From Dehalococcoidia bacterium (GTDB taxonomy: Bacteria; Chloroflexota; Dehalococcoidia; SZUA-161; SpSt-899): a DNA stretch of 59,871 bases. The notes beneath the pieces were generated by a model that made no database searches, was not told where the DNA came from, and saw only the letters and a program-made list of their open reading frames with translations. The DNA lies in NCBI GenBank assembly GCA_023271515.1, contig JALPXQ010000001.1:1-59871 (forward strand), given 5' to 3'. Below, piece by piece: positions 6,535-58,847 of this stretch. Position 1 is the first letter of the stretch. Each line of letters opens with the position of its first letter. Position numbers and translations under genes: made by a program.

Positions 6535-6673
6535 ATTATAAGTATAGCGTCGGACTGATAGATATGCAACAAAAATCTGGCCACCTCTTCTAAAACATGG
6601 ATGCTTGTGGTATACTGGCGATGAAGCCGGGTCAGGGGGTGGTTTGACCACGGCGGTGAGGTAAGATAATACT

Positions 6674-7573
6674 ATGGAAACACTATTAAACATAAGAAAC
6701 ATATCAAAGCAGTTTGGCAAGAATACTGTTGTAGATCAAGTATCCTTTGATGTTCATAAGGGTGAAATACTCGGCGTTCTCGGTCCCAATGGGGCGGGGA
6801 AGACCACGGTAATTAGAAGCATCATGGATATAATACGACCGGATTCAGGGGAAATTAGATTTAATTTTCAAGACAACAACAACTTTTTGTCTCAAATAGG
6901 CTATTTACCCGAAGAACGAGGTTTATATAGAGACTCCAGGGTGACGGATATACTATTGTATCTTGCTCAACTTAAGGAATATCCCAGAGATAGAGCGCGA
7001 AAAAGGGTGTTGGAATACCTTGCCAAATTTGATTTAGAAAATGCCGGGAAAATGAAAATAAAAGAACTTTCCAGGGGAATGGCCCAGAAAGTGCAATTTA
7101 TCGGCGCCATACTTCATGAGCCGGCTATCTTGATTCTTGATGAACCGTTTTCCGGATTAGACCCTGTTAGTCAAGATGTATTTTCTGAAGAGATTAGAAA
7201 TCTGGCAAGAAATGGTGTGGCTGTCTTGTTTTCTTCGCATCAGATGAATTTGGTGGAGAATCTCTGTGATCGCATCTTTATGATTCATAAAGGGAAAAAA
7301 GTATTATACGATACTCTTTTAAGGATCAAGCAAGATTTTGGCAGTTTTAAGTGTGAGATTATGAGTGAAGAGAATATCAGGGATAAGTTTATAAACTTCA
7401 AAGAAACCGAAAAGATAGAGCAAGAAGGCCTTCGCACAACGATCTATCTTAAGAAAGGCGTTGAGCCAGGTCAGTTTATCCAAAAATTGCCAGACAATAT
7501 ATCTATTGAGGAGGTTACAATTAAGAGAGATTCGCTTCATGATATTTTTGTGAGAACTGTAACCGAAAATTAG
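6674..7573 (+). CDS. ABC transporter ATP-binding protein (NatA-like)
   Basis: GPNGAGKTT, LSRGMAQKV, ILILDEPFSGLD. AT-rich block. Confidence 0.88.
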   Translation: METLLNIRNISKQFGKNTVVDQVSFDVHKGEILGVLGPNGAGKTTVIRSIMDIIRPDSGEIRFNFQDNNNFLSQIGYLPEERGLYRDSRVTDILLYLAQLKEYPRDRARKRVLEYLAKFDLENAGKMKIKELSRGMAQKVQFIGAILHEPAILILDEPFSGLDPVSQDVFSEEIRNLARNGVAVLFSSHQMNLVENLCDRIFMIHKGKKVLYDTLLRIKQDFGSFKCEIMSEENIRDKFINFKETEKIEQEGLRTTIYLKKGVEPGQFIQKLPDNISIEEVTIKRDSLHDIFVRTVTEN

Positions 7574-7590
7574 GGATCGAGGTTTCTTCT

Positions 7591-8850
7591 ATGAAAACAG
7601 TACAGAACAATACGATAAGAAACGGCATTAAGGTTGCTTTGTGGGAAATCAGAAAATTAGTGTGGAACAAAGCCTTTATTATTTCCCTTCTATTGACGCC
7701 GGTTATCTGGGGTTTATTTATGGGACTGCCAAGACTTTTTGAGAAAATCGGGGAACCCGCTGCTGCGCCCACAACTTATATATACATAGTAGATGAAATT
7801 GGTATTTATGAATCATTGTCTCAAAAGGTAAGTGATATAGATAATCTGTTTTTAAGAAAGCATTCAGGCCCTATAGATGACTTAAGAAATCGCATCGAAG
7901 GTGATGAAAATGCTGGATACGTGCACATAACAGAGGAGATATTTGAAACAAGACTAATCAGTGTAATGACAGGTACAGGAGATACTCACATTCCACTTGC
8001 CTTTAATACCAGACTCAAGGAAACACTGACGCGCTATGAATTGGCAATGCACAATGTAGAAGCGGGGGATATCGAAAAAATTGTTGCTGGATATTTCGTT
8101 AGTGTTAGTCCGGTTATTGAAGAAAGTGTGGATCCAATGGATCGTGTTAGAAAATGGGTTCCACCGATTTTTGCAATGATAATCTTTTTTATGGTCTTCA
8201 TGAGCGGAATGACGACTATGCAAAGCGCTATATCCGACAAAAGAGATAAAATGATTGAAATATTACTTTCTTCGGTATCTGCAAGCAGTCTGATGTATGG
8301 AAAGATCATTGGTAATTTCTTTGCCGGACTTATTCAATTGGCAGTATATTTGATATATGCACTAATGTTCATACATTTTCTGGGCATTCCTGGACTTGGC
8401 CATATTCCGGTGCATCAATTACTTTCTTATATTATCTCACCTGAATTGCCGTTATTATTGTTTTTTGCTCTCGCGGGCTATCTTTTGTTTTCTTCCATAT
8501 ATGCCGGGCTGGGGGCTACAATGGAAGACGTTATGAATGCTGGAAATTTTCAAGGAATCATTATGTTGCTCCCAGCCTTATCCGCTCTTTTCATAAGCCC
8601 TGTTATCGGCAATCCAGAAGGAATTATTGCCCAGATTGGAAGCTATATTCCGTTTACAGCCTCCATAGTAATGATACTAAGAATCACCCTTATTGACTTG
8701 GCTTTGATAGAAATTGTTATTCCAGTAGTTATTTTACTGGCATCAACAATGTTTATGGCGAAACTTGCCGGCAAGATATTCAGAACAGGAATGTTGATGT
8801 ATGGGAAGGAAGCGGATCCGAAAGAAATGTGGAAGTGGTTGAGACAGTAA
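7591..8850 (+). CDS. ABC-2 family permease (NatB-like topology)
   Basis: 419 aa. One N-terminal TM helix, a loop of roughly 150 aa, then about five TM helices. Paired with the upstream ATPase. Confidence 0.75.
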   Translation: MKTVQNNTIRNGIKVALWEIRKLVWNKAFIISLLLTPVIWGLFMGLPRLFEKIGEPAAAPTTYIYIVDEIGIYESLSQKVSDIDNLFLRKHSGPIDDLRNRIEGDENAGYVHITEEIFETRLISVMTGTGDTHIPLAFNTRLKETLTRYELAMHNVEAGDIEKIVAGYFVSVSPVIEESVDPMDRVRKWVPPIFAMIIFFMVFMSGMTTMQSAISDKRDKMIEILLSSVSASSLMYGKIIGNFFAGLIQLAVYLIYALMFIHFLGIPGLGHIPVHQLLSYIISPELPLLLFFALAGYLLFSSIYAGLGATMEDVMNAGNFQGIIMLLPALSALFISPVIGNPEGIIAQIGSYIPFTASIVMILRITLIDLALIEIVIPVVILLASTMFMAKLAGKIFRTGMLMYGKEADPKEMWKWLRQ

Positions 8851-8930
8851 CCCTTCTTTGCACTAGTGCCTACGATGCGAATCCCGGAAAAATCGGGAAT
8901 GTGGCGGGGCAAAGTTGGAAATGGAGAGTC

Positions 8931-9914
8931 ATGCGCATCGTATTTATGGGAACGCCCGAGTTCGGAGCGATCATTCTAAGGCGACTGCTCTCCAGTGAAC
9001 ATGAGGTAATAGCGGTCTACTCTCAGGCGGATAAGCCCGCAGGGCGCGGACGGATCGCCACTGCTCCACCGGTGAAGCAAGTTGCCCAGGAGCACGGTCT
9101 GATGGTATTCCAGCCAAAGGGGCTGAGGGACAGAGCTGAAGTTGCGCAACTGGCTAACCTGAGGCCAGATGCCATAGTCGTCGCCGCTTTCGGGCAGATA
9201 TTGCCCCGGGAGATACTGAACATCCCGGAGTTCGGCTGCCTGAATGTTCATCCCTCCCTCCTGCCCCGCTATCGCGGCGCCTCCCCTATCCCCTCTGCCA
9301 TTCTGTCTGGTGATGATATAACCGGTGTTAGCATTATGCTCATGGACGAAGGCATGGACACTGGACCTGTTCTAGGCCAGAGGACGGTTTCAATACACGG
9401 CGAAGATACCGCTGAATCACTGGGGTCCAGACTGGCCCAGGTTGGGGCTGATCTCCTGATAGAAACTCTCCCTCAATGGTTTGAGCGTCGTTTGGTGCCA
9501 CAGCCCCAAAAGGAAGAAGATGCCACCTATACCAGGCCGATTCTCAAGAGCGATGGAGAAATAGATTGGAATCTTCCGGCGGTGGAACTCTCGAGAAGAG
9601 TGCGTGCCTTCTATCCCTGGCCTGGATGTTTCACCCTGTGGCAGGGAAGGGTTCTCAAGATACTGGAGGCGGTCGCCTTGCCTCCTCGTGGGGAAGTGGG
9701 GCCAGGGACAGTTGTGCCGCTATCCGCTGAGGTGCCGGTGGGGGTGGGGACGGGGGAGGGGATACTGGGGCTGCATCGGGTTCAGCTCGAGGGGAAAAGA
9801 CCGATGTCTGCTGCCGAGTTCCTGCACGGGCAGAGGGCCTTTATCGGGCAGAAATTGACTCACCCTCCCCTGCTTGAGAGCCGCCGGCCGCCCAGGAGAT
9901 GCATATGCAGGTGA
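8931..9914 (+). CDS. fmt: methionyl-tRNA formyltransferase
   Basis: MRIVFMGTPEFG start and HPSLLPRYRGASPI motif. Start moved to ATG 8931 inside the longer ORF. Confidence 0.92.
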   Translation: MRIVFMGTPEFGAIILRRLLSSEHEVIAVYSQADKPAGRGRIATAPPVKQVAQEHGLMVFQPKGLRDRAEVAQLANLRPDAIVVAAFGQILPREILNIPEFGCLNVHPSLLPRYRGASPIPSAILSGDDITGVSIMLMDEGMDTGPVLGQRTVSIHGEDTAESLGSRLAQVGADLLIETLPQWFERRLVPQPQKEEDATYTRPILKSDGEIDWNLPAVELSRRVRAFYPWPGCFTLWQGRVLKILEAVALPPRGEVGPGTVVPLSAEVPVGVGTGEGILGLHRVQLEGKRPMSAAEFLHGQRAFIGQKLTHPPLLESRRPPRRCICR

Positions 9915-13050: not shown

Positions 13051-13625
13051 TACGCACCACCCACGATGATCTCATCCAGCGAGCGCTTGGGCACGTGGTG
13101 GATGCCCTGACTGTCGCGCCAGTATCCCGTGTCGCCGTCCGTCCCGAGCGGCTCGATGACCACTGTTTCCGCCGGTTTTCCGATCGCCAGCACCAGGAGT
13201 ATCTCGTAGCGATCAGGAATGTTGAGCGCGGCACGGAGCTTCGGACGATTGATCGAGGCCAACATGCATCCTCCCAGTCCCCTTTCCCTTGCGCCAAGCA
13301 TGATATTCTGGCTGGCGATGCCGTGGTCGCATCCAAAGTGAGTGGTCACCTCGGTATCGCCGAGCACGATGATATATGCCGATGGCCGTTCCCCTTCAGC
13401 CGGGCCGCCCCAGTCTTTGAGCGCCGCCGCCCAGGTGAGGGTGGAGAAAATCTGGGCGTTAGTCTCTGGCTCCCAGGAAAGGATGTATTTCAACGGCTGC
13501 AGATTTCTGGCCGATGCGGAATGCCTGGCCAGATCGAGCAGCTCGACCAGTACCTGGCGGGTGAGGGTCACACTCTGGTCGAACCGTCGGAAGCTGCGGG
13601 TGCTGCGGATCAAATCATCTATCAT
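13050..13625 (-). CDS. nitroreductase family protein
   Basis: 191 aa. RSTRSFRRF N-terminal motif typical of the NADH/FMN nitroreductase fold. Confidence 0.8.
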   Translation of the reverse strand: MIDDLIRSTRSFRRFDQSVTLTRQVLVELLDLARHSASARNLQPLKYILSWEPETNAQIFSTLTWAAALKDWGGPAEGERPSAYIIVLGDTEVTTHFGCDHGIASQNIMLGARERGLGGCMLASINRPKLRAALNIPDRYEILLVLAIGKPAETVVIEPLGTDGDTGYWRDSQGIHHVPKRSLDEIIVGGA

Positions 13626-13772
13626 TCTTAAGCTCCGTTAACAGATTTTTGAGAACGCCTTGGTAAACTTTTCACTCCCCTCAGAATAGATTATAACATA
13701 AAAGCTAAGTGTGACACCTGTCCCGGTGTAAGAGGCTGTGCCCCAAGCCGGAGAAGATCTCTGTTGGCCTCA

Positions 13773-14336
13773 TCATTGAGTGTATAGAGGGGCTTTCCCC
13801 ATGGTTGCGCTCCTCAAAACAAAAGCAATTGCCTTTGCAAGTTCTTCCGGCCTCTGTGATCCGATTAATATTGGCCTTCCATCTAGAAATTCTAAGGCCA
13901 CTCCACGATTACCGCTCACATTATATGCTTTACCTGATCTATAAGAACGAACACCCCATCCTCTGCAGTCTTTAATAGGACTATACGTTCGCACTTCGTA
14001 TCGCTTCAAGTTCTCCAAAGGAATCCTAAGAAAAGAAGAATGGAGAGGGAAGAGGCGAATATACAATCCATCACTTCGCACCTCTGTTATCAGTTTTGCG
14101 GTATAGAATAGCCAAATAAGACCTGCACCAAGAGCAATAAAAAAGCCTCCGACAATGAGCAGCATTGTATCTGATATTGGATCGTCTCCCCACGGTTGAC
14201 CAAAAACAAGTTGCCTAATCATTCCATAACCGAAAAGTCCCACAAGAAGCATACAACTGGAAAGCATGATTAACCAGAGCCACCATTGACGAAACTTTTG
14301 AATTTCCTGGAAAATCATATTTCCATCCTTATTCAT
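13773..14336 (-). CDS. membrane protein of unknown function
   Basis: 187 aa. Two N-terminal hydrophobic helices followed by a soluble domain. AT-richer than its neighbours. I recognise no family. Confidence 0.55.
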   Translation of the reverse strand: MNKDGNMIFQEIQKFRQWWLWLIMLSSCMLLVGLFGYGMIRQLVFGQPWGDDPISDTMLLIVGGFFIALGAGLIWLFYTAKLITEVRSDGLYIRLFPLHSSFLRIPLENLKRYEVRTYSPIKDCRGWGVRSYRSGKAYNVSGNRGVALEFLDGRPILIGSQRPEELAKAIAFVLRSATMGKAPLYTQ

Positions 14337-15141
14337 GTTACCCCTCCCCCTCTAAGCCATTTCACCTGACGTTTCGCGTGTTTGCGACGTTCGCCGATAG
14401 GCGAACGAACGGCTTCAGCAATCGCCTCTTTGGTCAGTGCCCGCGCCATTCCTCAATAACTGCCTCCCAAGCCATGTCGTTGGCTACCTGTTCAAGCACA
14501 TCTACAACTAATACTACTTTGTTAATTAGTCCTGTCTCTCTGAAGAATAAGGAGTTTCCAAAGCAGAGGAGATTGAGGAATGGGTGCTGTGACCAGCCCT
14601 CACCAGAATCGATCAGGTTCGGAACTTGACCGCCTGGTGCAAGTAACAAAGTAGTACTAATTCCGATATCTCCGAACATCCATTCCCGTCTGCACGTGCA
14701 ATTGCTAACACACTATGCCATGGCTAGTCAATAATCGTATCCCTTGAGGCAGATGGAACGGCGGCAATATGCTGCGCGGCTCTACCCCCTACCCATGCGG
14801 TATTTGATGTCATAGTTGATGATGAAACTTCCTCGTCGGTGAAGCCGTAGTGCTGCGCCTGCAGCACTCTTTATCGTCCTTGCTTTGCTTCCCACCTGAA
14901 AGTTCGCCGGAAAACCACCTCATCAGTCTCACTCCAGGCATTGCCCTGTTCAATACCCTCCAGTGCCTTATCTAAATGACCCATTTTACTTCTACGGATT
15001 CCATAGGAAGCATCCGGTGCTCCTCCTACTTAAACAGTGTATACAATGGTTGATGGTGGATGGTTGGTTGCCTTATCCTCATCGTTTTCTAACCCCTGGG
15101 CCTGCGGCCGGGGGCAGGCCTGACAACCCGAGCAGTTACAC

Positions 15142-15504
15142 TCAAGGTATATAGGTCACACACGAGTCTGGCGATTCCCAGACCTCGACATTGAAGATCG
15201 AAACCGCCTCCAGGCGGGGTTGCAGATCCCGGTAAATCGTGGTCGCGATGTTCTCCGACGAAGGGTTGATCTTGTCGAAGGGTGCTACATTATTCAAGCA
15301 GACGTGATCGAATCGCCCTAAGACCTCTCGCAGGTGCCCTTTCAACTCTGAGAAATCGAAGGCCATGCCAACATCATCGAGCTCCGAGCTCTCAACCGTC
15401 ACCACGGCCTCAAAGCGGTGGCCATGCAGTTCCTCACACTTGCCCTGATAGCCCCTCAGGTAGTGTGCGGCATCAAAGTGCTGCCGAACGGATACACGGT
15501 ACAT
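15142..15504 (-). CDS. queD: 6-carboxytetrahydropterin / 6-pyruvoyltetrahydropterin synthase family protein (PTPS-I/III-like)
   Basis: 120 aa. KCEELHGH carries both the C-x3-HGH and the E-x2-HGH signatures. Overlaps the folK 3' end. Confidence 0.85.
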   Translation of the reverse strand: MYRVSVRQHFDAAHYLRGYQGKCEELHGHRFEAVVTVESSELDDVGMAFDFSELKGHLREVLGRFDHVCLNNVAPFDKINPSSENIATTIYRDLQPRLEAVSIFNVEVWESPDSCVTYIP

Positions 15505-28620: not shown

Positions 28621-29828
28621 GTGGCACAGAGAGTAATTTTGGCTTATAGCGGCGGACTCGATACCTCAGTGGCTATCAAGTGGCTGGCAGAAAAGTATGG
28701 CATGGAGGTCATTACCCTGACCGTGTTGACATCGGGATGAAGAAAGACCACCCTTCAATTCAGCAAAGGGCACTTGATACTGGTGCCGCCAAGTCCTGTG
28801 TTACCGACGCTAAGGAGCTCTTCGTCAAGGACTACGTCTTCCCGGCTCTCCAGGCGAATGCGTTATATGAGGGTCAATATCCCCTGGCCACCGCTCTGGC
28901 CCGTCCCCTTATAGCCAGGCTCCTTGTGGACCGCGCTCATCAAGAGGGTGCCAGGGCAGTTGCTCACGGCTGCACCGGCAAGGGAAACGACCAGGTGCGG
29001 TTTGATGTCAGCATCGCCGCCCTCGATCCGCGACTCCAGATCATCGCCCCGGCTCGAGAATGGGAGATGACTCGAAAGGAAGAGATCGCCTATGCCAAAC
29101 GCCACGGCATCAGTATTCCCGCCACATCTGCTAGCCTCTACTCCACCGACGAGAACCTCTGGGGACGAAGCATCGAGTGTGGAGTCCTGGAGGATCCCTG
29201 GGTCGAGCCGCCGGAGGATATCTACGACTTGACGAGGTCGCCCGGTGATGCCCCTGATAAGCCGGCTTACGTAGAGATCGAGTTCGAGGAGGGAATACCT
29301 GTCCGCCTCGAGGGGCAAGACCTGGATGGCGTGTCTCTGATCGATCAGTTGAACGAACTAGCCGGAGAGCATGGGGTGAGGCGTATTGATCATGTGGAAA
29401 ACCGCCTGGTGGGGATAAAGTCACGCGAGATTTACGAAGCGCCGGCGGCCGAAGTTCTGCTTGCGGCACATCGGGCGCTGGAAGCCCTGGTCCTCTCGAG
29501 GGATCAGTCGCGATTTCACGAAAGAGTGACCCAGGAGTACTCCGATCTTATCTATAATGGGCTGTGGTTCAGCTCGTTACGGCAAGATCTCGCCGCCTAC
29601 GTGCAAAGCTCGCAGCGCTTCGTGAGCGGCTCAGTTCGGGTGAAGCTGTTCAAGGGCAGTTGTATGGTGGTGGGACGCAAATCGCCGCACTCGCTATACG
29701 ACCTGGGTCTGGCCACATATGATGAGGGCGACCTATTCGACCAGAGCGCCTCACCGGGATTCATCCACATCTGGGGTCTGCCGGTCCGGACGCAGGCCCG
29801 GCGGCAGTGGTTAGACCGGCGCAAATAA
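28621..29828 (+). pseudogene. argG: argininosuccinate synthase with a frame disruption near codon 35
   Basis: GTG 28621 follows AGGAGG and gives [35 protein letters not shown], then stops at 28738. The rest (DIGMKKD...) is in the frame of the 28680 ORF. An extra GT at 28723-28726 explains the shift. Confidence 0.8.
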
Positions 29829-29898
29829 ACAACGATGCCGAAGTTACACGCCATGCCTGTGAAAAATCTTAATATCCGCAAGGGGAATTTAGTAGAAT

Positions 29899-30204
29899 AT
29901 GGACGTAGTAAGGTCTAAAAACGGTGTCCCAATAAGATTGACAGAGGAGAGATGGATTCATATTACAGAGGAGCATTCAGAGATGGCGGGTTATTATTTT
30001 GAAGTGGTTCAAACGGTGGATGAGCCAGAGGCAATTTATGAGGGTAAGATGGGGGAGTGCATAGCAGCGAGAGAAATAGAGAAAGGTAAATATATTGTAG
30101 CAGTGTATAGAGAATTAAGTAAAGAAGATGGATTTGTAATTACCGCCTTCTTAACGAGGCGGAGGAAACAACTTGAAAGGAGGCGAAAGATATGGCAGCA
30201 GTAG
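29899..30204 (+). CDS. small toxin-like protein (DUF4258-like)
   Basis: 101 aa. IRLTEERWIHITEEH motif. Overlaps the next small gene. Family assignment is from memory. Confidence 0.5.
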   Translation: MDVVRSKNGVPIRLTEERWIHITEEHSEMAGYYFEVVQTVDEPEAIYEGKMGECIAAREIEKGKYIVAVYRELSKEDGFVITAFLTRRRKQLERRRKIWQQ

Positions 30205-30443
30205 AGGTAAAAAGTATATTGACCCTTGTGCCAGAGCTGTTGAAAGTCCCATATTCAAGGATTTGGACATCCTATGATAAAGAGGCTGATGTTTTATACA
30301 TCAACTTTAAGAAACCAAGTCATGCGGATGATTCTGAGCTTACAGATGATGATCTCATAATCAGATATGAGAAAGGGAAAATTGTGGGAATCACCATACT
30401 CAATGCAAGTAGAATGAGGACAGGATATGGGCACAGCGTATAA
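30192..30443 (+). CDS. DUF2283-like small protein (putative antitoxin partner)
   Basis: 83 aa. [12 protein letters not shown]...[12 protein letters not shown] pattern typical of DUF2283, from memory. Confidence 0.55.
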
Positions 30444-30519
30444 CAGCCGACATATGGCTACGCTATGCTCCGCCCAAATTCCCTCCCTTCGCTCGGGAAC
30501 TTCGTATGTCCGCAAAACG
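30436..30519 (+). other. attC-like site of the solo cassette
   Basis: R'' GCGTATAAC (30436-30444), L'' GACATATG (30449-30456), L' CGTATGTC (30503-30510), junction G at 30519. Shares the blocks ACGCT, CCCAAAT, ACTTCG and CAAAACG with the two sites near 57.1 and 58.8 kb. Confidence 0.55.
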
Positions 30520-32520
30520 ATAGACGAACTCTGTATCAACACCATACGTTTTCTGGCCATCGATGCTGTCCAGAGGGCAAATTCAGGCCATCCGGGAGCG
30601 CCCATGGGCATGGCGCCGATGGCTTATGTGTTATGGGACAGGTTTCTGAAGCATAATCCCGCCGACCCGAAATGGCCCAACCGGGACCGGTTCATTCTTT
30701 CGGCAGGGCACGCCTCAGCGATGCTCTATGCCCTCCTGTACCTTACGGGATATGAGCTGTCCCTTGAGGAGATCAAGCATTTCCGACAATGGGAAAGCAA
30801 GACCCCGGGGCATCCTGAGTACGGATTAACCCCTGGTGTGGAGGCGACAACGGGACCGCTCGGTCAGGGATTTGCCAATGGCGTGGGTATGGCCATTGCC
30901 GAAAAGATGATGGCACAGCACTACAATCGGCCAGGATATGAGATCATAGACCATTATACCTATGCTATTGTCTCCGATGGGGACCTTATGGAGGGCGTTG
31001 CCTCAGAGGCAGCTTCACTGGCGGGGACTCTTCGCCTGGGTAAGCTCATTTATCTCTACGATGACAACGATATTTCAATCGAAGGGCATACCGATATTAC
31101 CTTCCGGGAGGACGTGGGTAAGCGTTTCGAGGCGTATGGCTGGCACGTCGTAGGACCCATCGACGGCACGGATCTGGATGCAATCGATGATGCCATTCGG
31201 CAAGCACAGGCAGAGAGGGATCGCCCCAGCCTGATCATTTGCAAGACGATTATCGGTTATGGCAGCCCAAGCAAGGCAAACACCGCCAGTGCTCATGGTG
31301 AGCCACTGGGCGAGGCAGAAGTCCTTCTAACCAGGGAGAATTTGGCGTGGCCCTTCAGGGAGCCATTCACCGTGCCGCCGGACGTCCTGGTTCATTTCCG
31401 GCAGGCGCGGGAACGGGGAAAACGGTGGCAACAGGATTGGGAAAGCAAACTGGAGGCTTATCGCCGGGAATTTCCTGAGGCGGCAAGACGCCTGGGGGAA
31501 GACCTGGCGGGGAATCTACCTGACGGTTGGGAGCAGGATCTCGACGATTTGTTCTCCTCTCAGGAAAAGCCGATCTCCACACGCGCAGCATCGGGGCTGA
31601 TCATCAATGCCATTGGATCGAAGGTTCATTCCCTTACCGGCGGTTCGGCAGACCTTGCACCTTCCACCAAGACCATCATGAGAGACCGCGGGCACTATGG
31701 TCCGGAGAACTATGCCGGTCATAACATACACTTCGGCGTCCGCGAGCACGCCATGGGGGCAATCGCCAACGGCATGGCCCTTCACGGCGGCGTGATTCCC
31801 TATACAGCAACCTTCCTCGTTTTTTATGACTATATGCGCCCGCCGGTGCGCCTGGCAGCGATGATGGGGCTGCAAGTGATATATATTTTCACTCACGACT
31901 CTATTGGTGTGGGAGAGGATGGGCCAACACACCAGCCCATCGAGCAACTGATTGGCTTAAGATCGGTGCCAAATCTGGTAACACTGCGTCCTGCCGACGC
32001 CACTGAAACAGCCGAGGCATGGAAGATGGCTCTAAGGCGTCGTCATGGTCCCACGGCTTTAGTTCTCAGCCGTCAGGATCTGCCTTTCTTGGATCGCTCA
32101 ATATTGGCTTCAGCAAGCGGTGTGCAACGTGGCGGATACGTGCTCTGGGAAGCATCCACATCGCCGGAAGTGATCCTCATCGGCACAGGCTCGGAGGTCC
32201 ACATTGCCTTGGAAGCCGGGCGGATATTGCAGGAAAAGGGTGTCCCAGCAAGGGTTGTTTCCCTGCCTTCGTGGGAACTGTTTGATGCTCAACCGGCGGA
32301 GTATCGCAACCAGATTTTGCCGCCTGAAATAAGAGCGCGTATTTCAATCGAGGCCGGTACGCCTCGGGGATGGGAACGATATATCGGTCTGGATGGACTC
32401 GCCATGGGGGTGTCTTGCTTTGGTTCCTCAGCACCGGCAGGGACAATCTACGAGAGGCTGGGTCTGACTGCGAAAGCGGTGGTGGACAAAGCTCTCGCAC
32501 TTCTAGGGGGACGTGATTGA
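30454..32520 (+). CDS. tkt: transketolase
   Basis: SGHPGAPMG and SDGDLMEG motifs, full length. The present start is uncertain: in-frame ATGs at 30427 and 30454 both lie inside the inserted cassette. Confidence 0.9.
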
Positions 32521-35673: not shown

Positions 35674-35747
35674 TGGCGCATGGGGGATTCGAACCCCCGA
35701 TCTCCGCCTTGAGAGGGCGGCGTCCTGAACCCCTAGACGAATGCGCC
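35674..35747 (-). tRNA. tRNA-Glu (anticodon CUC)
   Basis: The reverse complement folds by hand into a cloverleaf: acceptor GGCGCAT/ATGCGCC, anticodon stem CCGCC/GGCGG with loop CTCTCAA, T-arm GGGGG-TTCGAAT-CCCCC. No CCA is encoded. Confidence 0.85.
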
Positions 35748-35750
35748 GTC

Positions 35751-35824
35751 TGGCTGGGGAACCAGGATTCGAACCTGGCCTTGTGGATCCAGAGTCCACC
35801 GTCCTACCGCTAGACGATTCCCCA
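35751..35824 (-). tRNA. tRNA-Gln (anticodon CUG)
   Basis: Reverse complement: acceptor TGGGGAA/TTCCCCA, anticodon stem GTGGA/TCCAC with loop CTCTGGA, T-loop GGTTCGAATCC. CCA is encoded. Confidence 0.85.
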
Positions 35825-50363: not shown

Positions 50364-50401
50364 GGCTATGCAGGAGGGTATGTGTGCGTCAGGAGGTGAG
50401 C

Positions 50402-51508
50402 ATGGCAGTCCGCGCAAACTTGATCCAGATCGAGCCGGGGGAAGCAGAGAGGCTCAAGCTCCTCATCCCCTATGATGCCACATGGGTAGCAAAGGTCAAG
50501 GCCATCCCTGGTCGCCGCTGGCACCCGAAGGAAAAGTGCTGGAGTGTTCCCCGCTCAGAGAACATGGTCGAAAGGCTCGTCTCACTCTTTGGCGAGGAGC
50601 AGGTGAAGGTTGAGCCGTCTCTGCGTCCCTTGAAGGACTCACTCATCTGCCAAGGAGAAGATCCGCAGCTAGTGCAACTGCTTGAAGCGATGGATCAAGA
50701 ATTGAGGCTGCATGGCTACGCGGCGAAGACACGCAAAGCTTACCTGGGGCATGTGGATCGTTTTGCTCGCTTCTATGGAAACGACCCGCAAGGTTTAAGC
50801 AAGGTAACGATGCGTGCATACCTGCTCCATCTGCTTCAGAAGTAGCAAGCATCCCACACGTATGTCAACCAATGTATCAGCGCACTGAAGTTCCTGTACG
50901 AGAAGGCCCTGAAAGAACCCTCCCCAATGGTCAACCTTCCCCGGCCAAAGAGGGAGCGCAAGTTGCCGGATATCCTGAGCCGGCAAGAGGTTCTTCGGCT
51001 CTTGGAGGCAGTACAGAACCCCAAACACCGTGCCATTATGCTGTTGACTTATTCGTCAGGACTCCGTCTGGGCGAAGTGGTACGATTGAAGATAGAGGAC
51101 ATTGACAGCGCGCGACGGCTGATTCACCTCCGACAAGCTAAAGGGCGAAAGGATCGCTACACCGTACTGTCCCAGGTGGCTTTGGATGCCTTGCGAGCCT
51201 ATTTCAAGCAGTATCACCCTGATCAGTGGCTCTTCCCCGGGGCGCAACCGGGGCGGCACTTACACGAACGCACCGTGCAGAAAGTCTTTGAGCAGGCCCG
51301 AGAAATGGCGGGAATTCGTAAGAATGTGTCTGTGCATACACTGCGCCATTCGTTTGCGACCCATTTGCTGGAGTCAGGCACAGACTTGAGATACATTCAA
51401 GAGCTGCTCGGACACAAGAGTTCCAAGACTACTGAGATTTACACGCACGTTAGTGAGCGAGACATTGGACGGATCCAGAGCCCGCTGGACACTCTTGGAA
51501 TTCAATAA
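50402..51508 (+). pseudogene. tyrosine site-specific recombinase with an in-frame TAG
   Basis: The two ORFs (…50845 and 50927…) share one frame, separated only by TAG at 50843-50845. Catalytic region HTLRHSFATHLLE...LLGHKSSKTTEIYTHV. C-terminal SPLDTL. Confidence 0.85.
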
Positions 51509-51622
51509 AATGGGAATATTGACGAGGGACGCTGACGGCTAAAGGAAGGGATTCGCGAAATGGTTCGTCTAACATGCCAAAACCGACGTATCTGCGAACC
51601 TTGGGGTGCGTGAATGCATGAG
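51509..51622 (+). other. attI-like region between the recombinase and the first cassette
   Basis: GC-rich spacer ending in G51622 of GTTGTCCGA. Does not resemble the attC-like cores. Confidence 0.4.
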
Positions 51623-51672
51623 TTGTCCGAAATTGCGGGCGACGGGCTAATGGAAATCAGAGGTGATAAATT

Positions 51673-52023
51673 ATGGATGATAAGGAGACATTTGGGGAAA
51701 TCAAAAAATTGATACAAGAATTTAACATGATACGGAATTGGGACAAATATCACCACCCTAAAGATTTGATTTTGGCGATAATGGAAGAGCTTGGAGAATT
51801 ATCTCGTATTTTTAAACGGGTTAACACTAAGAATGAGGTAAAATATCTTAAAAAAGAGAAGGTTGGAGAGGAAATTGCGGATATTTTTATTTACTTATTT
51901 ATATTATGCTATAAAGCAGATATAGATATTTCTAATGCAATAATGGAAAAGCTTCAAAAAAATAATGAAAAATATCCTGTCGATAAACGATTCAGAAAAG
52001 GAGGGTACAAAAATGGAAAATAA
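51673..52023 (+). CDS. MazG-like all-alpha nucleoside triphosphate pyrophosphohydrolase
   Basis: 116 aa. Metal-binding motifs EELGEL and EEIADI, and C-terminal NNEKYP. Confidence 0.75.
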   Translation: MDDKETFGEIKKLIQEFNMIRNWDKYHHPKDLILAIMEELGELSRIFKRVNTKNEVKYLKKEKVGEEIADIFIYLFILCYKADIDISNAIMEKLQKNNEKYPVDKRFRKGGYKNGK

Positions 52024-53311
52024 AGAGAATTTGAAAAGACGTGTTCTTTTATATATATCTAGAGGTGCAAACACTTTGGATAAATTACTCCAAGTTTGCA
52101 ACGGTATTTATCCAAACGAATTAAAATTTTTGTTAAATGAACTAAAAGATAAAAACTTAGTGAAGGAAGAAAATGACTTTTTTGTTGTTGATAAAAATTG
52201 TATCGAATATTTAAAAATAGTAGATGTAAATCGCTTAGAAATGAATAAAATAAATGAAAAATTTTTAAAAATGTATCATGAACTACCTATCCCTCACCCA
52301 CTAGATTATGAGTGGAGATGGAACTTAGATAATTTAAAAAAACTATTTACAGCTATAATAAACAAACATCCTTTTAACAACTTAAAAATTGGTTTTCTTG
52401 GAGCTCCAATTGCAGCTATTTATTTTTCTATTGTTAAAAATTTTGAAAACTTGAATTTCCAATTGACATTAATTGATAGGAATGAAGAAATAATCAGATA
52501 TATTAGAAATAATAGCATTCTAAATAACCAAATTAAAACAATATGCCACGACTTACAATATGAATTCAAAAATGGATTAGGAAAAAATGATATAATAATT
52601 ATGGATCCTCCTTGGTACGTAGCCTTTCACAAAATTTTTATCTCTAGAGCATCATCAATTTTGCAGCCCGAAACAGGTTTTGTTTATTCATCTTTATTTC
52701 CAACAAATACAAGACCAAATGCTATTTATGAAAGAATGGAAATATTAGAAATTTTTATTAAATCGGGGTTACATCTTGTATCTTTAACTCCTTCATTCTT
52801 TAAATATGAAACTCCACATTTTGAGTCAAAATCCCTCGAAGCAAGCGGTATTAGATTGGAATCTCATTGGCGGTATGGAGACCTTATAATTCTTCAATCA
52901 ACTAAGCTTTTAAGACCTATAATTTTTGGAGATTTTATTGTCGAAAATTTTGTTTGGAAAACTGTTAGATTTGATAAAAAACTAATTAAAATTAAGATCT
53001 CACCTTTTGAAGAACAATACATACGTCCCCGGATAATTCAAATATTAGATAAATCTAGCATTTTAGAGAGCGTTAGTAGAAGACATCCATACAGGCCTTA
53101 TGTAGATATGTGGACATCAGATAATGAAATATTTCATCTTACAGGAAGAAATATCATATACTTTGTTTTGAATTTGTACTCTTCAGGAGAAAATATTCAA
53201 CAGATTGTAGAAAAGATAAGTAAGAAATATGGAGTGCAAAGGAAAAAAATTGATGAAGATATAAAAGAAATTGTTAATTTTGTAGAAACTAATATAGTAA
53301 GGAGGGAATAA
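52013..53311 (+). CDS. wHTH / class-I SAM-dependent transferase-like (DPPW) protein with a PqqD-like C-terminal domain
   Basis: IIIMDPPWY motif IV, Rossmann-like FLGAPIAA...LIDRN, and C-terminal HLTGRNIIYFVLNLYSSGENIQQIVEKISKKYGV resembling PqqD/RRE. Start at ATG 52013 after AGGAGGG. Confidence 0.6.
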   Translation: MENKENLKRRVLLYISRGANTLDKLLQVCNGIYPNELKFLLNELKDKNLVKEENDFFVVDKNCIEYLKIVDVNRLEMNKINEKFLKMYHELPIPHPLDYEWRWNLDNLKKLFTAIINKHPFNNLKIGFLGAPIAAIYFSIVKNFENLNFQLTLIDRNEEIIRYIRNNSILNNQIKTICHDLQYEFKNGLGKNDIIIMDPPWYVAFHKIFISRASSILQPETGFVYSSLFPTNTRPNAIYERMEILEIFIKSGLHLVSLTPSFFKYETPHFESKSLEASGIRLESHWRYGDLIILQSTKLLRPIIFGDFIVENFVWKTVRFDKKLIKIKISPFEEQYIRPRIIQILDKSSILESVSRRHPYRPYVDMWTSDNEIFHLTGRNIIYFVLNLYSSGENIQQIVEKISKKYGVQRKKIDEDIKEIVNFVETNIVRRE

Positions 53312-53312
53312 A

Positions 53313-54548
53313 ATGAATATATTTAACTTGGCAGACTTAGGATATAAGATTATCGTAATAGATGAAAAAGCTATAAATTTATTTCTAAACAAAGTTTCAT
53401 TAGAAGAAATCAAAGATTTTATTCGTCACAAAGGGAAAGTTTATGTTTTGGGTAAAGATGCTGGAGAAATAAAAAAATATGTTGAAAAGTCTGGAGGAGA
53501 AATTATTGATATTTCTAAAAAAGAAGTATTGGCAGAGGTTACAACTATTGTAAGGACTAAAAACCATAAATTTTTAGATTGGGCTAAAACATTTGGGATA
53601 GATTCAAAATTGGTTAAATCTCAGGTATTATATGTTAAATATACCGATGCATCTGTTATAACAGATTTACCAGCCTTCTTTAATATGCCTTATGTTAAAT
53701 ATGTAAGAAAAAAAGACTGCTACTTAAGATTAATAGCTCATGGTATGGAAAACTGCCCTCACAATTGTGTATATTGCTATGCTAATTATGCTTATGATGT
53801 CCCAACAACAGTTTTAATCAATTTTAAAAATAAAATAAAAGAGGATATTCAAAAACCAAATATAAAGGAACATATTCAACGAGGTTATCCAATTAACATA
53901 GGTTCAATTACAGACCCTTTTAGTAAGGTAGCTGTTTATTTTGGTTTGGTTGAAGACTTTTTATCCTCTGTTGGTGACATTAGAACTTTAATAGTAACTA
54001 AGTCTACTCTTTTTACAAATGATTATTTTGTCGATTTATTAAAAAAATTTAGGAATGTAAAATTAACCTTCACATTTACAGGACTTCACCAATACGAAGC
54101 AGGTGTCCCACGCAGAGGCTATAATTTTCCATCAGAAGAAATATCAAAAGCTATATCCTCTGGAATTGATATTAATGTTTTTTATAGGCCAATAATAGAA
54201 GGTATTAATGATGATTTAAGCGATATGAGAGTTATATTTTCACAAATGAAAGAAGCAGGATTAACAAATGTATGTTTTGGTTTTTTAAGAAATAACATGC
54301 GAATGGAGGAGTCTCTATCTAAGAGATTTTCCTCTTTGTTCTTAGATTTGACTAAAGGATTGACTGACAAATACATGGATGATTTTTATCCTCTTTTAAA
54401 CTATCGCATTAGGAAATCATTAGAGATTCATAATATTCTTTACCATCTAGATATGAATATCTCTGCCTGTCAACCCTATATTGGAAAATTAAGAGATTTA
54501 GTAGAAACAACTTATTGCTCTTGTAGAAAAGAGAGGTGGGAAAAATGA
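53313..54548 (+). CDS. radical SAM enzyme, spore-photoproduct-lyase / COG1533-like
   Basis: CPHNCVYCYA cluster motif (CX3CX2C followed by YA, as in DNA-photolyase-type radical SAM proteins). An N-terminal domain of about 130 aa has unknown function. Confidence 0.65.
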   Translation: MNIFNLADLGYKIIVIDEKAINLFLNKVSLEEIKDFIRHKGKVYVLGKDAGEIKKYVEKSGGEIIDISKKEVLAEVTTIVRTKNHKFLDWAKTFGIDSKLVKSQVLYVKYTDASVITDLPAFFNMPYVKYVRKKDCYLRLIAHGMENCPHNCVYCYANYAYDVPTTVLINFKNKIKEDIQKPNIKEHIQRGYPINIGSITDPFSKVAVYFGLVEDFLSSVGDIRTLIVTKSTLFTNDYFVDLLKKFRNVKLTFTFTGLHQYEAGVPRRGYNFPSEEISKAISSGIDINVFYRPIIEGINDDLSDMRVIFSQMKEAGLTNVCFGFLRNNMRMEESLSKRFSSLFLDLTKGLTDKYMDDFYPLLNYRIRKSLEIHNILYHLDMNISACQPYIGKLRDLVETTYCSCRKERWEK

Positions 54549-55549
54549 AGATACATTTAGCAATTTTATATAAAGATTATTTAGATTTGATTTTGGAAGG
54601 TAAAAAAACGATTGAGGCTCGTTTTTCAAAGGTTAAATGTCCACCTTATGGTAGAGTTTCTATTGGAGATAAAATTCTATTAAAGGAAACAGGAGGTCCT
54701 ATTAGGGGAGAGGCTACAGTCAGTGTTGTAAAGTATTTTGATAACCTTGCTCCATCTAGGGTTGTCCATATTGTTAATAAATACAAAGAACAATTACAAA
54801 TTAAAGACAATTTTCTTAACCAAAAGTTGGATAGTAATTATTTAACTCTTATATTTCTCAAAGACGTCGTCGAAGTTTCACCTTATTTTATTAATAAGAG
54901 AGATAGAAGAGGCTGGATTGTATATTACAATCACGCTCCTCAATCAATACAATTGGACTTATTTGGAAATAAAGTCAGTGATAAGGAAGTGAAAATAAAC
55001 CCATATTACAGTGAATGCGAAAATGGATTGCATTCTTTCTTTAAATCTCCTTTAAAAAATAGTGAAGGATACCCACGTTGTAGAAATTGTGGTAAAGACA
55101 TAATTCACTGGAAGAAACTACATATAAGAGATTTAAAAAATATAGATTTTGTTATTTCAGAGTTAAGGAAAGAATGGTGGAGAAACTACTGGTGGGAGGT
55201 TGAAATCGATGAAAAAGCTATATCCCACGCACTTAGGAAGAACTCTAATGAACTATACGTTCTTGTAAGAAAAAGAATCGAAAAGTCTGTTGGGATTGTC
55301 TATGAGTTTAGAGGCAGAAAACAACCCTATCGTGATGGTTATCAGATACCCTACAAAGGCAATATTATTTATTATGCTCAACATGCTACAGCTACATGTT
55401 GCAGAAAATGTATTGAGTGTTGGCATGGCATACCTCAAGGCAGAAACCTCAACAATGAAGAAATAGAATATCTTACTATGTTAGTAATGAAATATATAAG
55501 AAGGAAATTAAGGGATTACAAGAGGGGGGTGATAAGAAATGGTAAGTGA
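54545..55549 (+). CDS. ASCH-domain / zinc-ribbon / DUF4186-like fusion protein
   Basis: N-terminal ILEGKKTIEARF...GDKILLKE (ASCH/PUA-like). CRNCG zinc-ribbon. C-terminal YYAQHATATCCRKCIECWHGIPQGR (DUF4186 signature, from memory). ATGA overlap with the upstream stop. Confidence 0.6.
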   Translation: MKIHLAILYKDYLDLILEGKKTIEARFSKVKCPPYGRVSIGDKILLKETGGPIRGEATVSVVKYFDNLAPSRVVHIVNKYKEQLQIKDNFLNQKLDSNYLTLIFLKDVVEVSPYFINKRDRRGWIVYYNHAPQSIQLDLFGNKVSDKEVKINPYYSECENGLHSFFKSPLKNSEGYPRCRNCGKDIIHWKKLHIRDLKNIDFVISELRKEWWRNYWWEVEIDEKAISHALRKNSNELYVLVRKRIEKSVGIVYEFRGRKQPYRDGYQIPYKGNIIYYAQHATATCCRKCIECWHGIPQGRNLNNEEIEYLTMLVMKYIRRKLRDYKRGVIRNGK

Positions 55550-56510
55550 TGATGAATTTGTAAGAGTAAGAGATGAAATTCTTAAACTCATCGTTGAAGG
55601 AAATAAAAAGTTACTATTCTGGGGTTTCACTCCATTTTGTATTAATCTTATTTCAAATCTTGTGAATATGGGTTTGGATAATTGTATAGTTGGAATAATT
55701 GACCATAAAAACAATAAACAAGGATGTAAAGTATACAATTATGTAGTATTACCCCCTTCAGAAATAAAAAAATTAGATATTGACACTTTAGTTATATGTT
55801 ATGATGAAGAAAAGGAAGATGTCTTAGAATTATTTTACAATTTATATTCAAAAAATAGAAAAGTTGAAATTATACTTTATGGAAATAAGAATTACGAATT
55901 TTCGGATAGTCTTTTTCAGGAAATAATTGATTCACTTCCTGTTAAGTCCAAGGCTGGTGGATATCCTTTTATGCTCATTCACATATACCAATCATTAATT
56001 CATGTTATCAAAAATAACATACCTGGTGATGTCGTAGAGATTGGTACATTCCAAGGTGGTACCACCGTATTCATGGCTAAAGTAATAAAAGCGTTAGGAA
56101 GCGATAAAAAAATTTTTTCTTTCGATACATTTTCAGGATATCCGGAGAGCAAAAACCCTTTAGACTTATTTAAAGATAAAAAGTGTGAGTTTAGTGATTA
56201 TGATTTCGTCAAAAACTATTGCAAACCGTATAAAATAGAACTTATTAGAGGAAATATAGTAGAAACCATTAATACGTTGAAAGGGGAAAAAATCTCTTTT
56301 TCTTTTTTTGATACCGACAATTATACACCTACTAAAATAGCTTTAAAATACATTTTCGATCTTACACCTAAGGGAGGAATCTTTGCTTTTGATCATTATT
56401 ACTCAAAAGATTGGATAAAAACTATAGGAGAAAGGATAGCCATTAAGAAGTTCTTTAAAGATAAAAATGTTTTTAACTTACAAGGAACTGGAATATTTAT
56501 CAAATTATGA
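55539..56510 (+). CDS. TylF/MycF-like SAM-dependent methyltransferase with an N-terminal Rossmann-like domain
   Basis: GDVVEIGTFQGGTT SAM motif, FDTFSGYPE, FFDTDNY. Confidence 0.65.
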   Translation: MVSDDEFVRVRDEILKLIVEGNKKLLFWGFTPFCINLISNLVNMGLDNCIVGIIDHKNNKQGCKVYNYVVLPPSEIKKLDIDTLVICYDEEKEDVLELFYNLYSKNRKVEIILYGNKNYEFSDSLFQEIIDSLPVKSKAGGYPFMLIHIYQSLIHVIKNNIPGDVVEIGTFQGGTTVFMAKVIKALGSDKKIFSFDTFSGYPESKNPLDLFKDKKCEFSDYDFVKNYCKPYKIELIRGNIVETINTLKGEKISFSFFDTDNYTPTKIALKYIFDLTPKGGIFAFDHYYSKDWIKTIGERIAIKKFFKDKNVFNLQGTGIFIKL

Positions 56511-56519
56511 GGTGTAACT

Positions 56520-57071
56520 ATGGAAAGGATTGTAATTGGTGTATCTGGTCCTATTGGGGCCGGAAAAACATGCCTTTGTAATATACTAGTGGCAAAATAT
56601 GGATTTAAATATTTAAGTTTTGGAAAATTGATTTCTGACATATTAAAAGAAGAGGGTGTTGAGATTACAAGAGAAAATTTACAAAATATGGGTGAAAAAA
56701 TAATAAAAGAGAAGGGTTGCAAGGGTGTTGTCGACTTGCTTTTTAAAAAGTATCAAGTGGGTGAGGTATCAAATTATACTATTGATGGTATAAGACATAT
56801 GAAAGTTTATTTGTATCTAAAAGAAATTTTTAAAAGCTCTTTTAAACTTGTATATGTCGATGCCCCACTAACTGTTAGATTTGAAAGGGTCAAAATGAGG
56901 GTTAAAGATATTAATATAAACTCACTGACTGATTTAAAAGAACTTGAATGTAAAGAGATCGAGAGAAATATTCCGTATTTAAAGAAATATGCAGATTTTA
57001 TAATAATGAATGATAAGGATGATACCCATTTAGAAAATAAACTAAAAAACCTATTAAATCAAATAATTTAA
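56520..57071 (+). CDS. P-loop nucleotide/nucleoside kinase-like protein
   Basis: GVSGPIGAGKT Walker A. Size and layout resemble dephospho-CoA kinase or dNMP kinase. Confidence 0.65.
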   Translation: MERIVIGVSGPIGAGKTCLCNILVAKYGFKYLSFGKLISDILKEEGVEITRENLQNMGEKIIKEKGCKGVVDLLFKKYQVGEVSNYTIDGIRHMKVYLYLKEIFKSSFKLVYVDAPLTVRFERVKMRVKDININSLTDLKELECKEIERNIPYLKKYADFIIMNDKDDTHLENKLKNLLNQII

Positions 57072-57076
57072 AATGT

Positions 57077-57209
57077 GCCCGTCGCCCGCAACTCTCCGCT
57101 TCGCTTCGGTGCTATCGCACTCGGACAACAGCAGGTATGCGGTTCGCTTACGCTCACCCAAATGCTCGGCTTCACCTCGCACTTCGCATACCCGCCGCCC
57201 GTTAGTTGC
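57077..57209 (+). other. attC-like site 1
   Basis: Box' GCCCGTCGCCCGCAA, 29-nt bulge, R'' TCGGACAAC, L'' GGTATGCG (57134-57141), 43-nt core, L' CGCATACC (57185-57192), R' GTTAGTTGC (57201-57209). Confidence 0.6.
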
Positions 57210-57279
57210 AATTGGCGTCGGGTCGAAATTCAGGAAAGGAATAAAAATACATAATTAATAAATTAGGAGAGGCGATAAA

Positions 57280-58713: not shown

Positions 58714-58847
58714 CGACCCGACGCCAACTTCTCGCCTCTTCGAGGCTCGACCCTTACGGGGCAACTAACAAGCGAATATACGGTTCGCTTCGCTCACCCA
58801 AATGCTCGGCTACGCCTCGCACTTCGCATATCCCCAAAACGTTATAT
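58714..58847 (+). other. attC-like site 2
   Basis: Box' CGACCCGACGCCAA, 33-nt bulge, R'' GCAACTAAC, L'' GAATATACG (58774-58782), core, L' CGCATATCC (58825-58833), R' GTTATAT (58841-58847). Confidence 0.6.

Follow-up and report, generated by a model that had tools for sequence, protein, structure and literature searches.

An attC-ended cassette in the first codons of a Dehalococcoidia transketolase gene and evidence for a recurrent landing site

Introduction

Insertion of gene cassettes outside integrons has reportedly been shown in E. coli only recently, and the evidence from nature has so far been made up mostly of solitary attC sites without a known history. A single attC lacking integron-integrase is referred to as a SALIN (Cury et al. 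2016, PMC4889954), and for genomic insertion mediated by IntI a GWT target consensus and precise excision have been reported (Loot et al., bioRxiv 10.1101/2022.09.11.507474). Integrons are known in Chloroflexi; no literature was found that links integrons, attC and Dehalococcoidia. The present analysis concerns a stretch of 59,871 nucleotides from contig JALPXQ010000001.1 of a Dehalococcoidia bacterium (hereafter the window, to which all positions refer unless another contig is named), whose placement in Dehalococcoidia was confirmed, and specifically a two-gene block between argG and the body of the transketolase gene tkt. We put a probability of roughly 85% on the reading that this block is a 676-bp mobile cassette, inserted precisely between tkt codons 3 and 4 by recombination of its attC with a genomic site, and that the position is a recurrent landing site.

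Results

The junctions of the block (Table 1) provide the starting point. The sequence ATA GAC GAA CTC follows directly 3' of G 30519, a G borders the cassette on either side, and GC content is 0.40-0.43 inside the block versus 0.55-0.60 in the flanks. The first 8 nt of the cassette are complementary to its own R'' box; specifically, GTTACACGC at 29843-29851, beginning with G 29843, matches the reverse complement of R'' (GTTATACGC) at 8/9 positions, an agreement with a chance of about 1e-4 at a fixed place. In-silico removal of 29844-30519 (676 bp) yields an in-frame Tkt N-terminus. The original prediction, made from the letters alone, had pointed to this complementarity, to an old ATG now out of frame for tkt and to in-frame tkt ATGs at 30427 and 30454 only, the latter within L''. 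Direct reading of 29400-30900 bore out every coordinate and each of these points: the old ATG now opens a 27-codon open reading frame (ORF), and among ATG, GTG and TTG codons only 30427 and 30454 stand in frame before the Tkt core.

Related genomes supply the empty site. The comparison covered 80 species-level tkt loci and the 40 closest Tkt proteins, in nearly all of which 3-10 residues precede DELCINT, with MPKIDELC recurrent and a few proteins having longer, unrelated upstream sequence. Whether the present 22-31-residue extension is ancestral or a product of insertion had been set beforehand as the test, and the extension was found in none of these 80 loci and 40 proteins. Because argG lies upstream of tkt in 0/80 of the species-level loci, the empty site was sought through close protein relatives. 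One of them, P0002, is a 669-aa Tkt that is 98% identical and starts MPKIDELCVNTIR (MPKIDELC); it is encoded on contig L096 (GCA_023271005.1), which reads ...caaataaacaacgATGCCGAAGATAGACGAACTCTGCGTC at the tkt start, as does L097 (ENA scaffold). Both contigs are 97.0-97.4% identical in tkt DNA and 97-98% in Tkt, and BLAST shows argG and tkt to be co-linear there, with exactly 29844-30519 missing.

Their junction, ...AACGATGCCGAAG/ATAGACGAACTC (the slash marks the crossover here and below), that is AACGATGCCGAAGATAGACGAACTC, is exactly the empty site obtained by excision in silico. The same junction, ATGCCGAAGATAGACGAACTC, occurs in L101 at 86% Tkt identity, and L006, at 73%, reads ATGCCGAAAATCGATGAACTC with a near-identical MPK start. 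In L096, L097 and L101, ATG CCG AAG thus adjoins ATAGACGAAC directly: empty alleles read AAG/ATAGAC and occupied ones AAG/TTACACGC...CAAAACG/ATAGAC. The locus therefore combines a crossover after G in a GWT-type target, no duplication and a precise empty site, as a secondary site does. Since relatives at 86% and 73% carry the empty MPK start, empty is the ancestral state. The ATG-CCG-AAG-ATA junction foreseen by the original prediction was found base for base, and the extension is not ancestral.

Inside the block, argG, the short ORF, ORF1, ORF2 and tkt share one strand. The 27-codon ORF stops 17 nt past the start of ORF1 (20 nt counting the stop codon) and may couple translation to it. ORF2 and ORF1 share 13 nt, and the TAA that ends ORF2 falls within R''. 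The pair had been described as DUF4258-like plus DUF2283-like. The DUF2283 assignment holds, while the DUF4258 one was only approximate: ORF1 has no Pfam match to DUF4258 and matches PBECR2, a nuclease family of the BECR fold (Barnase-EndoU-ColicinE5/D-RelE). With two small genes that overlap and a toxin-fold domain in one of them, the block fits a type II toxin-antitoxin pair in architecture and domains, and DUF2283 is mentioned alongside antitoxin in the literature, though sparsely. The PBECR2-type nuclease and the DUF2283 protein are probably a toxin and its antitoxin, a function read from the domains.

Transketolase_N begins at residue 33 of the window's Tkt (Pfam, E 5e-66), and the complete transketolase domain set is recorded for P0001, with the N, pyrimidine-binding and C-terminal domains and an intact GHPG. 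Tkt most likely now starts at ATG 30427, with 31 extra residues encoded by the attC, because a Shine-Dalgarno-like GAGGA lies 6 nt upstream of that codon; ATG 30427 stands 14 nt before the ORF2 stop codon. No comparable Shine-Dalgarno-like signal was found at ATG 30454.

Other cassettes use the same base. In four lineages the attC variants differ but belong to one family, and all end at the same base before ATAGA. The clade of the window (Tkt identity 94-100%) has PBECR2 and DUF2283 and the right junction ...CGCAAAACG/ATAGAC; L098 (JGI 3300031935; 90%) has an MNT and HepT toxin-antitoxin pair between argG and tkt and reads ...CCTCCAAAACG/ATAGAGGAACTC; L001 and L104 (91%) have a membrane-protein cassette with ORFs of 91 and 257 aa and read ...ACTTCGTATATGCTGGGAACA/ATAGACGAG; and L103 (88%), whose contig begins inside the attC and hides the content, reads ...ACTTCGCACGTCCGCGGCCG/ATAGACGAACTC. 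In L001/L104 an in-frame ATG provided by the attC allows Tkt to keep its normal length. L098 has the arrangement predicted for the window, with an ATGA overlap with HepT and a Tkt extension of 44 residues. On the left of the L001 cassette, an insertion sequence (IS) and the contig end intervene before the boundary. A single metagenome scan with the tkt 5' pattern returned two loci only, a duplicate of L001 and an unrelated organism. Either the site was hit repeatedly, or a first insertion made a mini-platform on which cassettes were replaced by attC x attC exchange; on both readings the tkt start behaves like an attI.

Several observations accompany these loci. Just upstream of the tkt-adjacent cassette stands a 582-aa transposase-like ORF (L001 18-1766), which coincides with the end of the contig in L001 and also in L104. 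The MNT-HepT cassette of L098 is preceded by 75 nt that duplicate the tkt 5' end (ATGCTGAAGATAGAC...GCAAATTCAG; 7285-7365 and 8133-8200); this duplicate is close to the window sequence, whereas identity is only 90% in the functional tkt beyond the attC. The non-canonical join suggests that cassette and tkt were imported together by homology-assisted illegitimate recombination. The same contig has a second variable spot between radA and argG (5200-5810), with two short canonical-looking attC sites (e.g. GCATAAC-AAGTC-...-TCTAGC-GTTGGGC) that flank a weakly DUF4258-like plus DUF2283 pair; this position holds ABC-transporter genes in L097 and nothing in the window. Finally, the tkt cassette pair has a homologue in L109 (1-520), with a DUF2283 that is 74% identical. 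An attC of another type and an IS110 transposase come after this pair, and a recombinase gene that is 85% identical stands about 3 kb downstream, so that one toxin-antitoxin module travels with different attC sites.

The history of the window's own cassette can be followed across strains. At least eleven assemblies carry it at tkt: ten contigs encode the exact ORF2 product, and L089/L092 were recognized via ORF1. Eight of these assemblies were compared in full. In 28/28 pairs the 676-bp cassette shows 0-2 mismatches, against a divergence of 1.7-6.85% over 2.6 kb of flank; a cassette diverged by 6% should show about 40. In a tkt tree, the deepest branches are the occupied alleles of L081 and L092. 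The near-absence of cassette mismatches, together with the short identical arms of the most divergent pairs, indicates that the cassette itself moved recently into one and the same site in diverged strains, a pattern unlike vertical inheritance or the exchange of long homologous tracts. Precise losses possibly occurred as well.

Two other histories have to be weighed here. Copying of one original occupied allele across strains by homologous recombination, for instance after transformation, would explain why the identical tract reaches 117-671 bp into tkt in some pairs and why the 75-nt tkt 5'-end duplication of L098 sits beside a more divergent tkt. Under that history, however, the arms should not be as short as they are in L083/L081 and L084/L081, where at 6-7% flank divergence a mismatch-free cassette is bordered by identical sequence for only 20 bp on its left side and 14-20 bp on its right, and different cassettes at the same base cannot derive from one allele; we consider it quite unlikely. 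Decidedly improbable is an old cassette that gave rise to empty alleles by precise excision only, without recent gain. It would fit the position of the empty L096 and L097 alleles inside the occupied clade, and IntI1 has been shown to excise cassettes precisely from genomic sites (bioRxiv 10.1101/2022.09.11.507474). An old insertion, however, would be expected to have diverged as its flanks did, yet the cassette has no mismatch in 676 bp where the flanks differ by 6%, and relatives at 86% and 73% have the empty MPK start.

The 3' end of the cassette has the form of an attC. Folded in silico, the bottom strand of the circularised cassette makes a long hairpin of -16.9 kcal/mol, consisting of a 14-bp R stem, a 4-nt unpaired TTTT spacer, a bulged G and a GACATA/TATGTC L stem; the imperfect R''-L''...L'-R' repeats, unpaired spacer and bulged bases of an attC hairpin are all present. 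Two further sites, located via repeat family D3, form an array downstream of the recombinase gene. BLAST of the tkt attC against the window gave no match; aligned over their full length, the three sites have the blocks AAC-AGC, CCCAAAT, ACTTCGYAT and CAAAACG in common, so that the shared blocks noticed in the original prediction are real. When only the two array sites are used to build a profile, its best other match in 59.9 kb is the tkt site, aligned over the full length and ending at G 30519, with a modest E of 0.037. A home-made covariance model, R1 (four sites, only 3 base pairs), recovers the site family itself and found no further members in 43 sources.

The target, too, has a counterpart beside the recombinase gene. 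The tkt target GATAGACGAAC agrees at 10/11 positions with GTTAGACGAAC, the complement of GTTCGTCTAAC (51562-51572), and the 9-mer TAGACGAAC occurs in the window only at the tkt junction and, inverted, in the recombinase-adjacent box, with 0.23 copies expected by chance. The window, L108 and L109 are co-linear from the recombinase gene to G 51621 and then continue with different first cassettes, TTGTCCGA, TTATACGCAATT and TTATACGCCATT, respectively, after G/TT beside an integrase gene, as at an attI. The divergence in L108 lies at 8890-8990 and in L109 at 4400-4470, corresponding to 51562-51650 of the window. L106 and L107 diverge earlier, after the conserved GTCTAAC (51573), with a different, perfect 55-nt hairpin (L106 11108-11532), for which recombination at the other box is one possibility. 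Judged by sequence likeness, the tkt start would be a mimic of the core box, a reading that leaves the L106/L107 variant unaccounted for. The block had originally been taken for the footprint of a cassette inserted at a secondary GTT-type site in a core gene. The insertion stands; a one-off event at a random GTT-type site does not, as the target is G/AT (GATAGAC) and at least four cassette or attC variants use it.

The candidate enzyme is a tyrosine recombinase whose closest solved structure is VchIntIA (PDB 2a3v, E 6e-37), with an IntI-like C-terminal tail common to both. An intact, 99% identical version of 368 aa stands at the same chromosomal place in L106 and L107. Its extra N-terminal region of about 95 residues has a sub-threshold Pfam match to HARP only. 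The system works like an integron yet lacks one defining feature of membership: the IntI domain by which an integron platform is recognized was not detected, with TIGR02249 scoring 178.8 bits, below its cutoff of 265.

Table 1 Features of the tkt locus and of the recombinase-array region in the window
Feature	Position	Strand	Basis or remark
argG end	29828	+	direct reading
Ancestral tkt start ATG CCG AAG, left target half	29835-29843	+	G 29843 is the crossover base
Inserted cassette, 676 bp	29844-30519	+	starts TTACACGC, the 3' part of its own R' box; last base is the attC G
Short 27-codon ORF (MPKLHAMPVKNLNIRKGNLVEYGRSKV, then stop)	29835-29918	+	made by the insertion; opens at the old tkt ATG (translation)
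ORF1, 101 aa, PBECR2 nuclease, putative toxin	29899-30204	+	Pfam PF18810, 32.6 bits, cutoff 27.1
ORF2, 83 aa, DUF2283, putative antitoxin	30192-30443	+	Pfam PF10049, E 1.6e-16
Present tkt ORF, 697 aa	30427-32520	+	ORF list; first 31 codons from ORF2 end and attC; ancestral part from ATA 30520
attC-like site	30436-30519	+	reading, array alignment, profile match, covariance-model match, bottom-strand fold
R'' GCGTATAAC	30436-30444	+	direct reading
L'' GACATATG	30449-30456	+	direct reading
L' CGTATGTC	30503-30510	+	direct reading
Terminal G of attC-like site	30519	+	direct reading
Right target half G/ATAGACGAAC, putative core-site mimic	30519-30529	+	GTTRRRY 6/7; GWT fit
Tyrosine recombinase gene, IntI-like, candidate trans catalyst	50384-51508	+	in-frame TAG 50846-50848
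attI-like site downstream of recombinase gene	51562-51622	+	GTTCGTCTAAC box, 48-nt segment, crossover G/TT 51621/51622
Array attC site 1, same family as tkt site	57121-57201	+	alignment, covariance model
Array attC site 2, same family as tkt site	58760-58841	+	alignment, covariance model

The array region offers further observations. The first array cassette (51623-57201), with about 5.6 kb and six genes on one strand (MazG-like, BpsA_C, DUF4186, methyltransferase, AAA_18 and others), is far larger than typical single-gene integron cassettes. Array cassettes start with an R' remnant, AA and a 13-15-nt stretch inverse to sequence about 30 nt upstream of their own R'' (51622-51648 versus 57075-57129; 57202-57226 versus 58717-58769); these end repeats would form an outer stem with a large bulge, which is unusual for attC. 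An opposite orientation of the array was considered in view of the L106/L107 divergence after GTCTAAC. For the array as a whole it was rejected: L108 and L109 diverge at the plus-strand G/TT, and the array attCs run co-linear with the one at tkt, for which the empty site fixes the polarity.

Elsewhere in the window, the region 13500-15300 was considered as an attC array and rejected. Its part 13640-15140 has a lower GC content of 0.46-0.48, a minus-strand DUF6141 gene and about 800 bp without an ORF of at least 90 aa (short ones reach at most 83 aa). Two low-GC islands (0.36-0.45), at 1-2500 and 6500-9000, each contain an ABC-2 transporter pair of ATPase and membrane protein, and similar genes fill the radA-argG gap in L097 and L082; these islands are possibly another class of acquired block. 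Two adjacent tRNA genes occupy 35674-35824 on the minus strand.

Discussion

The data are best explained by a model in which a promoterless two-gene cassette with a folded 3' attC would move as a circle, the circular form being predicted. A tyrosine recombinase, for which the gene described above is a candidate, would join the cassette attC, cut at G/TT, to duplex AAG/ATAGACGAAC at tkt codons 3/4, a reaction equivalent to that between an integron attC and a secondary site (attG). Reuse of the site would follow from GATAGACGAAC mimicking the core box of the recombinase itself. Cassettes that differ from one another but share an attC family would then land there, or swap by attC x attC exchange, lineage by lineage, and precise excision or non-insertion would give strains with an intact tkt. 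After insertion, the old tkt ATG would drive the 27-codon ORF that runs into the toxin gene, and Tkt would be re-initiated at ATG 30427, overlapping the end of ORF2.

A bolder extension of this model, which we hold only tentatively and at somewhat less than even odds, is that tkt codons 3-7 serve as a second dedicated cassette platform, a pseudo-attI that repeatedly captures, exchanges and releases cassettes, with the tkt start expressing the cassette and the translated attC restarting Tkt.

A number of points weigh against insertion by attC x genomic-site recombination at a recurrent site. Concerning the enzyme, the only recombinase gene in the window carries an in-frame TAG, as does its copy in L099, and when the protein is set against VchIntIA, query residues 87-109 stand opposite chain residues 175-239, so that about 42 residues are missing at the IntI-specific domain; a canonical IntI elsewhere in the genome may be the catalyst instead. 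Concerning the site, the hairpin energy differs from that of shuffled sequence by a z of only -1.86, a modest gain, and each box misses its consensus once (R'' GTATAAC versus RYYYAAC, 6/7; R' remnant GTTACAC versus GTTRRRY, 6/7). An Rfam scan of the window returned the two tRNAs only and no attC family at the gathering threshold. Concerning the relatives, the degenerate attC of L001 ends in A, not G, and was missed by the covariance model, the left junction of L098 is non-canonical, and most of the relatives are metagenome-assembled genomes, which may carry some consensus effects.

Part of this picture would also fit a different sort of non-autonomous element with a hairpin end, such as an IS200/IS605-type derivative moved by a single-strand transposase. 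IS200/IS605-type elements insert beside a short target and excise precisely, and the tkt block likewise has a hairpin at one end, no target duplication, precise empty sites and no recombinase of its own. The block has one hairpin only, however, with R''-L''-L'-R' architecture and a start complementary to R''; tandem sites of the same family lie beside a tyrosine recombinase, with G/TT crossovers between strains; and no HUH transposase was noticed among the ORFs inspected, in an inspection that included no dedicated search for one. Such an origin is highly improbable. The notion that the 22-31-aa extension is native to Tkt, with the small genes merely upstream, is refuted: although the present ORF is intact and annotated by gene callers as a 697-aa protein, the extension is absent from the relatives examined and co-linear with the attC, and empty sites exist.

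These findings place a whole cycle at one base pair in a wild, uncultured Dehalococcoidia population: empty and occupied alleles coexist, one cassette has spread among 6%-diverged strains and several cassettes share one target. Furthermore, they indicate that insertion of a cassette into core-gene coding sequence need not inactivate the gene, since an attC can be translated. Integron-finding tools now in use would overlook an integron-like recombinase that lacks the hallmark IntI domain. The locus thereby offers a concrete target sequence and a concrete enzyme, the intact recombinase P0121.

Comparison with known systems

The closest parallel is the SALIN, or attG insertion. As there, the attC is at the 3' end, the crossover follows G at GWT (here G/AT) without target duplication, the cassette start complements its own R'', the isolated site lies about 21 kb from the array, empty alleles are precise and host expression signals read the cassette. 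The tkt site differs in being located in the first codons of a core metabolic gene, which stays open because the attC supplies a start codon. In addition, at least four attC variants share this base, the target agrees with the core box of the system itself at 10/11 nt, beyond GWT alone, and the nearby recombinase lacks the IntI signature domain.

With sedentary chromosomal integrons such as the Vibrio superintegron, the locus shares toxin-antitoxin pairs as cassettes (PBECR2-DUF2283, and MNT-HepT in L098), a homogeneous attC family within the genome and strain-variable cassette content. In contrast to those integrons, the recombinase gene here points toward the array, and its product has the extra N-terminal region of about 95 residues and no IntI insertion. 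The cassettes, moreover, reach several kb with several genes and carry a 13-15-bp inverted repeat at their ends. Like integrative elements that insert at the end of a conserved gene and rebuild it, for example at tRNA or tmRNA genes, the cassettes recurrently target a conserved gene end and leave the gene functional. Unlike them, the tkt element carries no recombinase, no duplicated identity segment is present in the window, and what takes the place of the tkt 5' end is not a copy but a set of unrelated residues encoded by the attC.

Taken together, secondary-site insertion, SALINs, the GWT target and precise excision are already described; what is new is the population evidence at single-base resolution, the repeated use of a coding site that resembles a core box, gene rescue by a translated attC and a recombinase without the IntI domain.

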